Part shown: piece after piece, positions 34,378 to 54,745 of the stretch
How the letters are laid out: every line of letters begins with the position of its first letter
How positions within the stretch are numbered: the first letter of the stretch is position 1
Assembly: GCA_018058095.1 (NCBI GenBank)
Contig: JAGPCO010000022.1
Location: 3,493-67,492, forward strand
Direction of reading: 5' to 3'
DNA from: Kofleriaceae bacterium
GTDB lineage: Bacteria; Myxococcota_A; Polyangia; Haliangiales; Haliangiaceae
Length of the DNA stretch: 64,000 nt
Translations under genes and position numbers: made by a program
Notes under the pieces: generated by a model
What the model saw: only the letters and a program-made list of their open reading frames with translations
What the model was told of the DNA's origin: nothing
Databases searched by the model: none

Positions 34378-35958
34378 CTACCGCAGCTGGTAGATCGGCC
34401 CGCCCGGGCCGGCGTCGACCAGGCTGGCGTTCGCGCCCAGGTACGTCGCCAGCTCGACGTCGATGGGCAGGCCGGCGACGTGGGCGTAGAAGCGGGCGCC
34501 GCGTCGGTGTGCGGCGGCCAGGCGCTCGACGCCGGTGGCGCCCAGGTCGTCGTTGGCCAGGACCCAGCCGCGGGTGCGCGAGCCATAGAACACGCGCGGA
34601 TCCTCGAAGTTGTTGCGCGTGCCCCAGTCAGGGTCGCGCCGCGGCGCGCGCGCGCGCACCACCACCAGCGTGCCGGGCCGGGCCAGCGCGCCGAGCCGCG
34701 CCGCCAGCGCGGTCTCCGGCTGGGCCGGCTGCGCGCGCAGGAAGCGGGCCGCGCTGCCGGCCGAGGCGACGGCGAGCAGGAGCGTGACGAGCGCGACCAC
34801 GACGCGGCGCCGGCGCCACCACGGCGCCGACGACGCGGTCGACGTCTGCACTGGTCCTTCAACCGAAACAGCCCCGAGCGCGACCGCGGCGCGCGCCACC
34901 AGCGTCGCCCCCAGCACCAGGTGCGGCAGGTGGTAGTGCGTGCCGTACGGCCCGGCGGTGTAGCGCAGCGCCAGCACCAGCAGCACCAGTGCGCCGCCGG
35001 CCAGCGCCAGCACGTCGGCGTTGACCGGGCCACCCGGCGACGGGCGCACCAGCTGGCGGCGCCACAGCAGCACCAGCGCGGCGACGGCGCCGAGCCAGCC
35101 CAGGCCCCATGGCACGGCGAAGCGCACCAGCGCCAGCCAGGTCGACGGCGCCGCCAGCGCCGCCGCCGTCGGCAGCTTGCTGTCGCCACCGCTGAGCACG
35201 CCGAAGGTGTTGCCGCTGGTTAGGTACAGGCCGCGCGCGTGCAGCATCCAGGCCGCGACCAGCACGACGACGACGGCCCAGCCCAGCCACAGCCCGGGCG
35301 CGCGCAGCCGACCACGCTGCGCCAGCAGCACGAACAGGCCCTGCGCCAGCCCGAGCTCGAGCGTGGTCGGCTTGAGCAGGCCAGCCAGCGCGGTCGCCGC
35401 GACCCAGCCGAACCAGCGCCGGGCCGACGGCGCCTCGGCCCAGCGCACGAACCCGAGCCAGCCGAGCGTGAACGCCAGCACGGCCAGGCCGTCGGGCTGG
35501 ATCGACGTGCTCATCACGATCGCGCCCTGGTGCGCCAGCAGCGCCAGCAGGGCGGCAGCGCCCGGCAGCGGCCCGTGCCGGCGCGCCAGGTCGCGCGCCA
35601 GCAGCAGCACGGCCAGCGCGACCGCCAGCAGCGACAGCAGCTGGCCAGGCCAGGTCGCCAGGCCGACCAGCCGCAGCACCGCCGCCACCAGCAGCGGGTA
35701 CACCGGCGCCTCGGTCTCGACCTCGCCGGTGCCGTCGCCGCGCCAGTCGATGCGCGGGGCCCAGGCCGGCCCCCCGTCGAGGAGGTAGTTGCGGGCCATG
35801 GCCTGGGTGTCGGCCTGGCGCCACCCCATCCAGTCGTCGGTGATGGGCTCGTGCCGGCGCGCCAGCCACATCATCGCGGCCCACGCGCCCACCACCAGCG
35901 CGGCCACCATCATCCAGCGGTCGGGCCGCCGGGTCGCGTCCGCGTGCGCCTGGCCCAT
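34378..35958 (-). CDS. GT-C fold membrane glycosyltransferase (ArnT/PMT_2-like)
   Basis: About 10 hydrophobic segments followed by a soluble C-terminal domain. The N-terminal loop DDWMGWRQADTQAMARNY resembles the acidic loop-1 motif of GT39/GT83 enzymes. Starts 7 nt after the NRPS-PKS stop. Confidence 0.65.
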   Translation of the reverse strand: MGQAHADATRRPDRWMMVAALVVGAWAAMMWLARRHEPITDDWMGWRQADTQAMARNYLLDGGPAWAPRIDWRGDGTGEVETEAPVYPLLVAAVLRLVGLATWPGQLLSLLAVALAVLLLARDLARRHGPLPGAAALLALLAHQGAIVMSTSIQPDGLAVLAFTLGWLGFVRWAEAPSARRWFGWVAATALAGLLKPTTLELGLAQGLFVLLAQRGRLRAPGLWLGWAVVVVLVAAWMLHARGLYLTSGNTFGVLSGGDSKLPTAAALAAPSTWLALVRFAVPWGLGWLGAVAALVLLWRRQLVRPSPGGPVNADVLALAGGALVLLVLALRYTAGPYGTHYHLPHLVLGATLVARAAVALGAVSVEGPVQTSTASSAPWWRRRRVVVALVTLLLAVASAGSAARFLRAQPAQPETALAARLGALARPGTLVVVRARAPRRDPDWGTRNNFEDPRVFYGSRTRGWVLANDDLGATGVERLAAAHRRGARFYAHVAGLPIDVELATYLGANASLVDAGPGGPIYQLR

Positions 35959-35964
35959 GCGCGG

Positions 35965-54051: not shown

Positions 54052-54106
54052 GGACCGTCCCGGTTGCGGCCCAGGCCTGGCCACCGCACCGCGCGGGTCG
54101 CGCGCG

Positions 54107-54745
54107 CTACAGGTTCTCCATCGTCACCAGCTCGAAGCCGGCGTCGCGCAGGCGCGGCACCAGCGTGCGCAGCGCGGCCACGGTCTGGGCCTGCCCCTCG
54201 TGCAGCAGGATCACGTCGCCGCTGGTGACCCGGTCGGGGCCGCACCGCTCGGCGATCCGCGCCGCCGCCGCCCCGTCGTAGTCGCGGCTGTCGTGCGACC
54301 ACATGCCGACGGTGTAACCGCCAGCCAGGAGCGTCGTCAGGGCGACGATGCTGAGCGTGCCGTGGGGTGGGCGGACCCAGCGCGCGTGCGCCCTGGGCCG
54401 TGGCGCCATCAGCGCGTCGCACCGGCGCAGCTGCGTCAGCAGCTGGCGCGGCCACTGCCGGGTGAAGCGCTGGTGGACGTAGCCGTGGCTGCCGACCTGG
54501 TGGCCCGCGGCCCGGTAGGCGGCCATCGCCGCCGGCCGCAGGGCGAGGCGATCGCCCATGACGAAGAAGGTGGCCGGCACCGCGAGCTCGGCCAGCACCT
54601 CGAGGTAGCTCGGCGTGAGATCGTCGGGGCCGTCGTCGAAGGTGAGGGCGATGCGGCGGTGATCGCGCGGGCCGTGCCACAGCACCCGTCCACCGCTGCC
54701 CCTCTGGGCGACGGCGGCCAGCACCCGACGGAGGCGCGCCCTCAT
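54107..54745 (-). CDS. polysaccharide deacetylase (NodB homology domain)
   Basis: ALTFDDGPDD, HQVGSHGYVH, VRPPHGT, MWSHDSRDY and VILLHEG motifs, in canonical order. Confidence 0.85.
   Translation of the reverse strand: MRARLRRVLAAVAQRGSGGRVLWHGPRDHRRIALTFDDGPDDLTPSYLEVLAELAVPATFFVMGDRLALRPAAMAAYRAAGHQVGSHGYVHQRFTRQWPRQLLTQLRRCDALMAPRPRAHARWVRPPHGTLSIVALTTLLAGGYTVGMWSHDSRDYDGAAAARIAERCGPDRVTSGDVILLHEGQAQTVAALRTLVPRLRDAGFELVTMENL

Follow-up and report, generated by a model that had tools for sequence, protein, structure and literature searches.

How does a peptide-polyketide assembly line that carries no releasing domain discharge its product, and what receives it? The question is raised by a locus in the 64,000-nucleotide stretch of Kofleriaceae DNA analysed here (the window), in which a hybrid synthetase is accompanied by two atypical hydrolases and by glycan-handling genes. 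The cassette is real, widely conserved and apparently uncharacterised: our literature searches found it described nowhere and turned up no characterised equivalent of the same architecture. It may fix a small peptide on a cell-envelope glycan instead of yielding a free metabolite. The gene, domain and junction descriptions of the earlier sequence-only reading were all borne out, the coding frames being marked by a third-position GC content of 0.85-0.96.

Anatomy of the synthetase

The NRPS-PKS (35965-49068, minus strand, 4367 aa) has the Pfam domain order A1-PCP-KS-AT-ACP-AMT-C-A2-PCP-C-A3-PCP, made up of three AMP-binding, four PP-binding, two Condensation and single KS, AT and Aminotran_3 domains. 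Its PKS module and aminotransferase occupy 42847-47178 on the same strand: the KS lies at 46051-47178 (ketoacyl-synt and Ketoacyl-synt_C), the AT at 44692-45543 (Acyl_transf_1) and the class-III PLP aminotransferase at 42847-43782 (Aminotran_3, E=2e-42), and Pfam finds no KR, DH or ER in the module. Motifs are intact in the KS (TACSTS), the AT (GHSVGE, HAFHS) and the condensation domains (HHIVLDG, HHAVWDG), and carrier Ser motifs stand at aa 569, 1603, 3185 and 4277. Both the domain order and the intact motifs agree with the MycA-type KS-AT-ACP-AMT-C logic originally ascribed to the protein.

MycA/ItuA and McyE-type modules have this order and a class-III PLP aminotransferase in common with it; in MycA the embedded aminotransferase turns the ACP-bound beta-keto thioester into a beta-amine before condensation (PMC3870968). 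The ACP-AMT-C region is about 40-48% identical to generic AMT-containing synthetases in the database. The systems differ at both ends. MycA, ItuA and McyE start from a fatty acid supplied by an acyl ligase, whereas here the starter is an amino acid delivered by A-PCP: the N-terminus opens directly with an amino-acid A domain, in which the alpha-amine-binding Asp is retained (FDAS), with neither a fatty-acyl-AMP ligase/ACP loading unit nor a preceding C-starter domain. Such a starter leads us to predict a vicinal 3,4-diamine. Downstream, the present line has only two further modules, without TE or macrocyclisation, and its partners are the two hydrolases (hydr1 and hydr2) and glycan genes.

The specificity-pocket residues are DALWLGGTFK in A1 and DILQLGMVWK in both A2 and A3, which, by comparison with published specificity codes and not by a predictor, we take to be Val-like and Gly-like, respectively. 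A1 would then load a Val-like amino acid, KS and AT would add a malonate extension, the aminotransferase would, as in MycA, exchange the 3-oxo group for an amine, KR being absent, and the two C-A-PCP modules would append two residues through their Gly-like pockets. The product predicted on PCP3 from these assignments is the thioester of a short, cationic chain, 3,4-diamino-5-methylhexanoyl-Gly-Gly.

The reported absence of TE, R and loading ligase is correct: the Pfam scan of the synthetase gave no Thioesterase, NAD_binding_4 or terminal C match, and the protein ends about 50 residues past PCP3. There a Pro/Ser-rich linker is followed by a 15-residue basic amphipathic motif (35968-36012, minus strand), which may serve as a docking peptide or anchor the line to the membrane; the pattern R-L-x-R-[WVL]-L-S-[AV]-L forms the C-terminus of about 50 synthetase orthologues.

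The paired hydrolases

Two hydrolase-fold genes are transcribed divergently beside the synthetase. The first, hydr2 (49065-49838, minus strand), is translationally coupled to it through a GTGA overlap with its start; the second, hydr1 (49957-50832, plus strand), is joined by another GTGA overlap to a flippase gene. These junctions were read directly, as was the 6-nt gap between the synthetase and the following GT-C gene. The best NCBIfam matches are TIGR03100 for hydr1 (70 bits, cut-off 168) and TIGR03101 for hydr2 (95 bits, cut-off 203; Pfam Hydrolase_4). The 53 hydr1-family representatives also stay below the TIGR03100/TIGR03101 cut-offs, with a best E-value of 8.8e-31 and none near canonical scores.

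Both proteins had been called atypical, and justifiably so, since Cys in hydr1 and Arg in hydr2 replace the nucleophile Ser of canonical relatives. The hydr1 elbow reads G-L-C-S-G, its Cys aligning to the Ser of solved hydrolases, and a His is present in the C-terminal part. Of 53 orthologues, at least 95% retain the Cys; across the hydr1 family, Cys and His are each found in 142 of 143 representatives. In hydr2 the elbow G-L-R-L-G aligns with G-L-S-M-G of solved esterases, placing Arg at the nucleophile position. The catalytic His is absent and the Arg is kept even in distant loci, so that hydr2 looks like a pseudo-hydrolase. Its AF2 model (pLDDT 87) has the alpha/beta-hydrolase fold, and its coding region may extend upstream, where an in-frame VFHFG is conserved.

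With PHA synthases (Cys-Asp-His) and with Cys-nucleophile or trans-acting thioesterases, hydr1 shares the alpha/beta-hydrolase fold, the elbow Cys, the C-terminal His and a link to carrier-protein thioesters; unlike them, it is obligatorily paired with a degenerate paralogue. PDB searches with hydr1 and hydr2 returned esterases and lipases only, with no similarity to PHA synthases or known Cys-thioesterases.

The pair is kept together: hydr1 adjoins hydr2 in 53 of 54 loci, the synthetase follows them in 42 of 46, and natural fusions exist both between the two (P0395, hydr2::hydr1) and with the assembly line (P0378 of locus L146, hydr1::A-PCP-KS-AT). Megasynthase, hydr1 and hydr2 form the near-invariant core of the cassette.

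Distribution and accessory genes

Related loci number more than 100 and come from Myxococcota (Kofleriaceae, Haliangiales, Labilithrix luteola) and Gammaproteobacteria (Pseudoxanthomonas, Lysobacteraceae). Recurrence in dozens of independent contigs places the arrangement beyond chance. The cassette is present in other Myxococcota and is not confined to that phylum. Synthetase orthologues are collinear and 60-77% identical in more than 90 loci.

Flippase, deacetylase and GT-C recur beside orthologous synthetases in other genomes, so the proposed partnership with glycan genes holds beyond this contig; however, these genes are accessory and not core. A MOP flippase occurs in about half of the loci, a GT-C in about a quarter and a NodB-type deacetylase in about a fifth.

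The flippase of the window (50829-52286, plus strand), in operon with hydr1, matches Polysacc_synt_3 over profile positions 1-293 of 293 (E=6e-39, 134.5 bits, cut-off 23) and the NCBIfam MOP flippase family below its cut-off (116 against 273 bits). Its orthologue adjoins hydr1 in 23 of 45 loci, and L027, L073, L074, L090 and L112 carry divergent flippases on the downstream side of the synthetase. Next comes a 263-aa Sfp/HetI-type PPTase (52246-53037, minus strand; Pfam ACPS, E=5e-14, 52.6 bits, cut-off 25; best NCBIfam match HetI), homologues of which stand beside hydr1 in L011, L027, L034 and L041 and are also present in L118 and L147.

Of the two deacetylase genes, both on the minus strand, the NodB/CE4-type copy at 54107-54745 is complete (Polysacc_deac_1, E=2e-24, 86 bits, 120 of 124 profile positions) and has the motifs TFDDGP, HGYVH, RPPHG and LLHEG; in 7 of 40 loci an orthologue, 48-58% identical, neighbours the flippase or hydr1. 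The paralogue at 53046-53405 matches the full copy, over residues 1-107 of the latter, at 79% identity and is probably inactive, as an internal deletion of about 87 residues has taken the later catalytic motifs.

Behind the synthetase lies the membrane glycosyltransferase (34378-35958, minus strand; PMT_2, E=8.8e-11, 42.7 bits, cut-off 26.1). Its AF2 model (pLDDT 88) has the GT-C fold, with multiple helices and a periplasmic domain at the C-terminus. The best PDB match is ArnT (5F15/5EZM, E=5.5e-8, TM 0.6, at an identity of only 15-16%), followed by PglB, ALG9/12 and AftD. A group of acidic and aromatic residues close to the N-terminus (D42, W46-T51) shows no variation. GT-C orthologues directly follow the synthetase in L007, L008 and 8 of 34 metagenome loci.

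The more constant partners of the synthetase had been missed as such: besides hydr1 and hydr2, they are a TIGR04325-family methyltransferase (30463-31299, plus strand; 203.6 bits, cut-off 80) and a JmjC/Cupin_8-like oxygenase, putatively of the Fe(II)/2-oxoglutarate type (29510-30424, minus strand; Cupin_8 E=8.8e-10, JmjC_2). The conserved set accordingly runs past the limits first drawn at 34378-54745, as far as 29510-31299. The methyltransferase is 62-66% identical to the L007 and L008 genes and lies downstream of orthologous synthetases in 17 of 25 loci, including the gamma-type L073 and L112. Oxygenase orthologues (70-73% identical, H-x-D...H conserved) do so in 14 of 25 assessable loci, and in L014 and L018 the gene directly follows hydr2. 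One or both occur in about three quarters of the loci, and we regard them as co-conserved, putative tailoring genes.

Here the GT-C is parted from this pair by a three-gene insertion on mixed strands (31271-34287), encoding a 284-aa protein (plus), a 132-aa protein (minus) and an ECF sigma-DsbA fusion (minus; Sigma70_r2/r4 with Thioredoxin_4/DSBA). No homologue of these genes was found in any of about 130 related loci, and in L007, L069, L078, L079, L084 and L093 methyltransferase and oxygenase come immediately after the GT-C. The insertion is specific to this genome and lies outside the conserved cassette.

Proposed off-loading and the nature of the acceptor

TE and R are absent and the pair almost always accompanies the synthetase, from which we infer release by the two hydrolase-fold proteins. 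We propose, granting it about an even chance, that the Val-derived 3,4-diaminoacyl-Gly-Gly chain is off-loaded by hydr1/hydr2 onto a lipid-linked glycan and then flipped. Through its Cys and His, hydr1 would take the chain as an acyl-S-enzyme, and hydr2, with Arg for nucleophile and no catalytic His, would be its non-catalytic partner. Together they would act as an acyltransferase, not a hydrolase, passing the chain to a hydroxyl or amine of a cytoplasmic, membrane-bound, lipid-linked sugar; in genomes bearing the NodB-type enzyme, the acceptor may be a de-N-acetylated amino sugar. The conjugate would cross the inner membrane via the MOP flippase, and in the Kofleriaceae-type version the ArnT-like GT-C would attach it to an acceptor in the envelope. 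Tailoring of the peptide would fall to the methyltransferase and oxygenase.

The proposal is supported by the synthetase's domain order and intact catalytic motifs, by the MycA precedent for its aminotransferase chemistry, and by the conservation, coupling and fusions of the hydrolase pair. Three observations support the glycan as the acceptor. First, hydr1 and hydr2 are related to exosortase-A/EPS-associated families. Second, flippase, deacetylase and GT-C recur in the close family; the Labilithrix locus also carries an Acyl_transf_3 gene and L112 a SIS-domain gene. Third, divergent hydrolases sit after NRPS carriers in polysaccharide loci, or beside polysaccharide genes: among the distant contexts of the hydrolase families, the four that are informative all prove to be polysaccharide loci, and three of them contain NRPS or A-domain modules. 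L064 has an A-domain, hydr2, hydr1, a flippase and an XrtA-type GT4; L147 has exosortase EpsH, EpsI, an NRPS, hydr2::hydr1, GT2, GT4, a sulfotransferase and a deacetylase; L148 has an NRPS, hydr2, hydr1, a deacetylase, three GT4 genes and a flippase; and L150 has a UDP-sugar dehydrogenase, an AlgX-like protein and GT4. In the divergent relatives L116, L118-L120, L147 and L148 the pair directly follows the terminal PCP, and thus occupies the usual position of a TE.

Other observations weaken the glycan step. All glycan genes are accessory, and some loci lack them in the scanned flanks: within 10 kb downstream of the synthetase, the Xanthomonas-type L114 and L115 have no glycan genes and L077 and L095 have no homologue of flippase, GT-C, methyltransferase or oxygenase, while the distant variant L116 has no glycan genes in its 20-kb locus. 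Profile scans of the window gave no priming glycosyltransferase, polymerase or polyprenyl-phosphate sugar synthase. A MOP-family protein could also just be the exporter of a small molecule, and the intermediate's free gamma-amine should be prone to self-lactamisation, the avoidance of which the model leaves unaccounted for.

The strongest rival, which we nevertheless find rather unlikely, is an ordinary secondary-metabolite cluster whose product is a free, secreted, small cationic peptide-polyketide. Here hydr1/hydr2 would be a trans-acting thioesterase (hydrolysing or lactamising), the MOP protein an exporter, and the sugar genes either neighbours or decorators of a free metabolite. Stand-alone alpha/beta-hydrolases release the products of some TE-less lines, the curacin TE is among the structural neighbours of the hydr2 model, and methyltransferase and oxygenase are typical tailoring enzymes; the variable glycan genes and the missing priming glycosyltransferase and polymerase fit as well. 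Against this, the pair is kin to EPS-locus families, its informative distant contexts are those just described, the transporter belongs to the Wzx/PST class (Polysacc_synt_3) and not to MATE, ABC or MFS, and a dispensable antibiotic line would seldom keep 60-77% identity over more than 3000 residues in two phyla.

Improbable, in our estimate, is an acceptor that is a membrane lipid or protein, as in a cationic head-group modification analogous to AlmEFG or aminoacyl-phosphatidylglycerol, with the flippase moving the modified lipid. The predicted product is indeed small and cationic, the basic amphipathic tail past PCP3 could hold the last part of the line at the membrane, and the enzyme that the GT-C resembles, ArnT, modifies lipid A. 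There is also established precedent for the aminoacylation of envelope lipids and polymers by way of carrier proteins: DltABCD D-alanylates teichoic acids and AlmEFG glycylates Vibrio cholerae lipid A, both adding positive charge. Their overall logic, from A-domain enzyme to carrier to envelope polymer or lipid, is also that of our main proposal. However, they move single amino acids, without PKS or AMT, by MBOAT/DltD or the AlmG acyltransferase, whereas we propose transfer by a Cys-hydrolase and pseudo-hydrolase pair; the DltD match in the PDB search with the hydr proteins was marginal (E=0.03). Moreover, the co-conserved genes include none for a lipid A or phospholipid enzyme, and the distant contexts, rich in GT2, GT4, sugar dehydrogenase, sulfotransferase and exosortase, point to polysaccharide.

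The Arn pathway (the NodB-type deformylase ArnD, the flippase ArnE/F and the GT-C ArnT) and NodB/NodA of Nod-factor synthesis, where amino-sugar de-N-acylation comes before another step, combine parts seen in the window: an ArnT-like GT-C, a CE4/NodB-type enzyme and a flippase. Yet the window has no ArnA, ArnB, ArnC or NodA homologue, its flippase is of the Wzx type and not ArnE/F, and neither GT-C nor deacetylase is present in more than about a quarter of the related loci.

Least probable, by a small step, is that hydr1/hydr2 either work at the start of the line, where they would N-block or prime the amine of Val, or edit as a type-II thioesterase; the product would then leave non-enzymatically or through an unlinked enzyme. 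In the main family the two genes do precede module 1, the L146 fusion carries hydr1 at its N-terminus, A1 has no C-starter, and a gamma-amino thioester should need protection from lactamisation. However, the pair follows the last PCP in the divergent relatives, L064 has a single A domain and nothing to prime, and the Ser-Asp-His triad normally kept in editing thioesterases is missing from hydr2 and has its Ser changed to Cys in hydr1.

Off-loading onto a glycan invites a broader and more tentative proposal, to which we give somewhat less than an even chance: hydr1/hydr2 may be a general, unrecognised machine for acyl transfer from carrier protein to polysaccharide, passing carrier-bound aminoacyl, acyl or NRPS-PKS peptidyl chains to lipid-linked sugars before Wzx flipping. 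If so, the cassette in the window makes a peptide-polyketide-decorated envelope glycan, and the long-unexplained exosortase/PEP-CTERM set of ligase, ACP, PLP enzyme, hydrolase 1 and hydrolase 2 is the minimal form of the system. Each paralogue here best matches one hydrolase model of the exosortase A set, the two are adjacent, and their company again includes an enzyme that adenylates, a carrier domain and a PLP enzyme, the setting often being a polysaccharide locus. Beyond its hydrolases the exosortase A set comprises an AMP-forming ligase (TIGR03098) and a PLP decarboxylase (TIGR03099). The scores of hydr1 and hydr2, however, are far under the curated cut-offs, and a 4367-aa assembly line replaces the single ligase, ACP and decarboxylase. 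No exosortase is found among the window genes scanned; the distant relative L147 lies beside EpsH and EpsI.

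Gene set and assembly line of the locus

At a G+C content of about 75%, open reading frames by themselves carry little weight in the window. Third-position GC of 0.85-0.96 marks the same frames that the sequence-only reading had named, and each gene and domain was confirmed by profile search. The NRPS-PKS synthetase of 4367 aa (35965-49068, minus strand) is preceded by hydrolase hydr2 (49065-49838, minus) and followed by a GT-C membrane glycosyltransferase (34378-35958, minus; PMT_2 profile). On the plus strand lie hydrolase hydr1 (49957-50832), of alpha/beta-hydrolase fold like hydr2, and a MOP/Wzx flippase (50829-52286; Polysacc_synt_3 profile). 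Profile search also places an Sfp/HetI-type PPTase (52246-53037, minus) and a complete CE4/NodB-type deacetylase (54107-54745, minus) beyond them, together with a deacetylase copy carrying an internal deletion (53046-53405, minus). A TIGR04325 methyltransferase (30463-31299, plus) and a JmjC/Cupin_8-like oxygenase (29510-30424, minus) complete the set. The junctions are as first described: GTGA overlaps join hydr2 to the synthetase and hydr1 to the flippase, and 6 nt part the synthetase from the GT-C gene. A scan of the divergent intergenic region between hydr1 and hydr2 found no promoter or terminator.

The synthetase matches three AMP-binding, four PP-binding and two Condensation profiles as well as KS, AT and Aminotran_3, in the order A1-PCP-KS-AT-ACP-AMT-C-A2-PCP-C-A3-PCP. 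The KS motif (TACSTS), the malonyl-type AT motifs (GHSVGE and HAFHS) and both C-domain motifs (HHIVLDG and HHAVWDG) are intact, and four carrier serines are present. The position of the aminotransferase, between ACP and C, is that of MycA, where the enzyme aminates an ACP-bound beta-keto thioester (PMC3870968). This domain order agrees with the MycA/McyE-like KS-AT-ACP-AMT-C core proposed earlier; the core is alike, but the window locus has neither the loading ligase nor the TE of that family. Profile search of the synthetase matched neither a thioesterase nor a reductase domain, which upholds the earlier claim of a line devoid of both, nor any KR, DH or ER domain.

Specificity pockets of the A domains were mapped by motif anchoring and read with published codes. 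The A1 pocket is DALWLGGTFK, while those of A2 and A3 are both DILQLGMVWK; we take them to stand for Val, Gly and Gly, respectively. Because of this reading, the chain bound to the last carrier, PCP3, is predicted to be 3,4-diamino-5-methylhexanoyl-Gly-Gly, a small and cationic molecule. Calculated from these predicted residues, the acyl-peptide would be C11H22N4O4, with [M+H]+ of about 275.17 prior to any methylation or hydroxylation. The A1 pocket reads DALW[F/Y/L]GGTFK in 38 of 41 orthologues, with two others varying at one other position, and the A3 pocket is nearly invariant. The A2 pocket exists in two types across loci L011-L115, DILQLG[M/L]VWK (about 34 loci) and DISD[I/V]TGVWK (18 loci), implying two product variants. 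As for module number, locus L024 is apparently one C-A-PCP module short and L031 has an additional module at the front.

The synthetase ends in a Pro/Ser-rich linker followed by a basic amphipathic motif (35968-36012, minus). Among some 50 orthologues the common form of this tail resembles SRLQRWLSALIPGSKS, with the pattern R-L-x-R-W/V-L-S-A/V-L (orthologues in L066-L117); the Xanthomonas-like group carries the variant GVFGRLLARLGGRGGG.

The hydr1/hydr2 pair and its conserved partners

The best NCBIfam matches of the two hydrolases are different models, TIGR03100 for hydr1 ('hydrolase 1', exosortase A system-associated; 70 bits) and TIGR03101 for hydr2 ('hydrolase 2', of the same system; 95 bits). 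The pair resembles the exosortase-associated one, but both scores lie far under the curated cut-offs; judged from these matches, hydr1 and hydr2 are a sister family of the exosortase A-associated hydrolases and not members. TIGR03100 is the first match for 53/53 hydr1-family representatives (best E-value 8.8e-31), and the hydr1 family comprises 347 clusters at 50% identity (E≤1e-30).

Both active sites are unusual. When aligned to solved esterases, whose elbow reads G-L-S-M-G, hydr1 has G-L-C-S-G with Cys at the place of the nucleophilic Ser, and hydr2 has G-L-R-L-G with Arg at that position. Among 53 orthologues, at least 95% keep the Cys; over a broader set of representatives, 34-57% identical to the window protein, this residue and a C-terminal His are each retained in 142 of 143. 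The Arg of hydr2 persists in distant loci, L146, L148 and P0395 among them, and the aligned hydr2 orthologues have no conserved C-terminal His. Modelled with confidence (pLDDT 87), hydr2 adopts a plain alpha/beta-hydrolase fold, and a structure search returned this generic fold alone, not discriminating between functions. Upstream of the annotated Met of hydr2 the frame stays open (49839-49913, minus) and encodes 'TVFHFG', which matches the conserved N-terminal strand of the orthologues (V..YFG/FHFG), with no ATG, GTG or TTG in this interval: perhaps translation begins at a non-canonical codon, or perhaps the upstream strand is a relic.

Over 550 database proteins are related to hydr2, the closest sharing about 60% identity with it. 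Looking up gene contexts and scanning the GTDB species representatives yielded 55 loci, in MAGs of Kofleriaceae, Haliangiales, Myxococcales and Anaeromyxobacter, in Labilithrix luteola DSM 27648 and, among Gammaproteobacteria, in Pseudoxanthomonas sp. CF125 and MAGs of Lysobacteraceae, Lysobacterales and Xanthomonas. Since gammaproteobacterial loci exist, we rejected a Myxococcota-specific pathway. A further 80 loci, 51 of them orthologous ends, came from scanning metagenomes with the conserved PCP3 end as anchor, and the cassette is abundant in soil metagenomes; with the ACP-AMT-C piece as query, all matches were at most 1800 aa long. The synthetases of these loci align collinearly with the window protein for more than 3000 residues, sharing 60-70% identity with it; compared with each other they reach 77%. 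The sequence flanking the cassette is unrelated between loci.

Gene frequencies were counted over 54, 46, 45, 40, 34 or 25 loci depending on the gene. The partnership of the hydrolases with each other and with the line is nearly obligatory: hydr1 adjoins hydr2 in 53/54 loci, and the synthetase follows hydr2 in 42/46. Methyltransferase (17/25) and oxygenase (14/25) are also frequent, one or the other being found in 19/25. The glycan-handling partners of the sequence-only reading do recur, but are not universal: an orthologous flippase adjoins hydr1 in 23/45 loci, a NodB-type deacetylase occurs in 7/40 and GT-C follows the synthetase in 8/34, while the PPTase is present in 3/40. In L027, L073, L074, L090 and L112 a divergent flippase is encoded downstream of the synthetase. 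Other sugar genes likewise recur without being universal, and further neighbours vary too; an Acyl_transf_3 gene adjoins hydr1 in Labilithrix, and L112 has a SIS-domain gene. Beyond the eight counted loci, GT-C appears in three partial cases and in L007 and L008, and nine GT-C proteins are linked, by contigs of matching length, to contigs also carrying hydr2. Given the 8/34 frequency and a 36%-identical GT-C (P0235) unlinked to any synthetase, we rejected GT-C as a core partner.

Two loci of Kofleriaceae MAGs, L014 (10879-11811) and L018 (3538-4476), possess flippase, hydr1, hydr2 and the JmjC-like oxygenase with no megasynthase within 10 kb. A conserved gene of 322-353 aa follows their oxygenase and also adjoins hydr1 in Labilithrix (L020, 8233-8985). 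A dissociated pathway is unsupported there: the neighbours are DAO, ABC, SBP and stand-alone aminotransferase genes, and none encodes A, KS or C.

Release of the chain and its possible acceptor

The two hydrolases are found fused to each other and, in one case, to an assembly line. Protein P0395 unites hydr2-like and hydr1-like parts on one chain; in P0378 a hydr1-like part precedes A-PCP-KS-AT as an N-terminal fusion, and a hydr2 gene is located just upstream. In the divergent lines L116 and L118-L120, hydr2 and then hydr1 come directly after the last PCP, the usual TE site (architecture of L116: [..KS-AT][ACP-AMT-C-A-PCP][C-A-PCP]).

For distant members of the hydrolase family, all four informative contexts (L064, L147, L148 and L150) are polysaccharide loci. 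In L064 an A domain, hydr2, hydr1, a MOP flippase and an XrtA-type GT4 stand together, adjoined by a GGDEF gene. L147, a 36-kb Logan contig (SRR8302209), encodes EpsH exosortase, EpsI, HpsJ, a PPTase, a PCP-ended NRPS, a hydr2::hydr1 fusion, epimerase, GT2, GT4, sulfotransferase and deacetylase; it has two NRPS genes, one whose A domain is interrupted by a luciferase-like oxygenase, and a radical-SAM gene. L148 combines C-A-PCP, hydr2, a hydr1 fusion, deacetylase, a heparinase-like gene, three GT4, flippase and sulfotransferase. Its fusion protein P0414 (4319-6298) joins a hydr1-like domain to a C-terminal region of about 350-360 aa, which matches no Pfam family and has no relative by sequence in the PDB. 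L150, with hydr1, a UDP-sugar dehydrogenase, an AlgX/GDSL protein and GT4, is one of two representatives chosen regardless of features, the contig of the other being too short to inform.

We propose that hydr1 would receive the chain on its Cys, forming an acyl-S-Cys intermediate, that hydr2 would serve as a non-catalytic partner, and that the acceptor would be a lipid-linked sugar on the cytoplasmic face. The Wzx-type flippase could afterwards export the conjugate, and in the Kofleriaceae-type version the ArnT-like GT-C, whose model (pLDDT 88) has ArnT 5F15 as best PDB match, might install it. For transfer to a lipid-linked sugar followed by flipping, we judge the chances to be even.

The main rival has hydr1/hydr2 release a free metabolite that the MOP protein exports, a course of events we find unlikely. 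The Xanthomonas-like L114 and L115 have no glycan-related genes within 10 kb downstream. A smaller alternative is that the pair acts in loading or editing: the N-terminal fusion of P0378 puts hydr1 where a line begins, the starter carries a free amine, A1 has no C-starter before it, and the gamma-amino thioester should lactamise readily, a problem on which the co-conserved methyltransferase may bear. Passage of the chain to a lipid or protein acceptor is likewise a minor alternative.

Transfer to a glycan resembles Dlt/Alm aminoacylation in its overall logic, and the ArnD/ArnT and NodB/NodA sequences too, but the transfer enzymes are not homologous to any of these. We found no description of the cassette in the literature, where a survey of conserved Myxococcota BGCs left out the relevant genera. 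We class it as a TE-less NRPS-PKS, orphan and highly conserved, whose putative release pair is of a new type. The chance is substantial, though a little below even, that the locus stands for a carrier-protein-to-glycan transfer system of a new class. If the transfer model is true, non-ribosomal assembly lines decorate envelope polysaccharides, and both the product class (peptide-polyketide-glycan conjugates) and the release chemistry (acyl transfer by a Cys-hydrolase and a pseudo-hydrolase) fall outside the current NRPS/PKS repertoire. It would also give a function to the hydrolase 1/hydrolase 2 pairs that annotation pipelines flag, unexplained, beside exosortase EPS loci. The plain reading is still a highly conserved orphan cluster, 60-77% identical across Myxococcota and Lysobacterales, whose product is predicted to be a vicinal diamine. 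Direct tests are possible in two cultured hosts, Labilithrix luteola DSM 27648 and Pseudoxanthomonas sp. CF125.

Neighbouring genes in the window

A three-gene insertion, specific to this genome, parts GT-C from the methyltransferase and oxygenase. It includes a single frame (32626-34287, minus) that encodes an ECF sigma-70 factor (regions 2 and 4) with a C-terminal DsbA/thioredoxin-like domain. None of the related loci has a counterpart of the insertion, and the ECF-DsbA factor was rejected as a cluster member on that ground. Elsewhere, an unrelated ECF sigma directly follows the synthetase in L095, and a separate DSBA gene lies close by in L007.

The truncated deacetylase (53046-53405, minus), which shares its strand with the PPTase and is 8 nt upstream of it, is 79% identical to the complete copy over residues 1-107. 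Its sequence then jumps from 'QLL' to 'PRLRDAG', and with the roughly 87 missing residues the later catalytic motifs are gone. Interleaved with the two copies are a small AgmX/PglI C-terminal-domain protein (53554-54051, plus; myxo_SS_tail, GltG-like) and a TonB_C protein (54790-55605, minus), which suggests a local segmental duplication.

Upstream of the cassette, signalling genes (19257-21773, minus; 5595-6551, plus; 6589-8577, plus) comprise a GAF-GGDEF diguanylate cyclase, a response regulator with degenerate GGDEF and a Ser/Thr kinase. On the other side, a 550-aa protein (57486-59138, minus) of this apparently Myxococcota genome carries a Thiol_cytolysin (cholesterol-dependent cytolysin) domain (E=4e-49).
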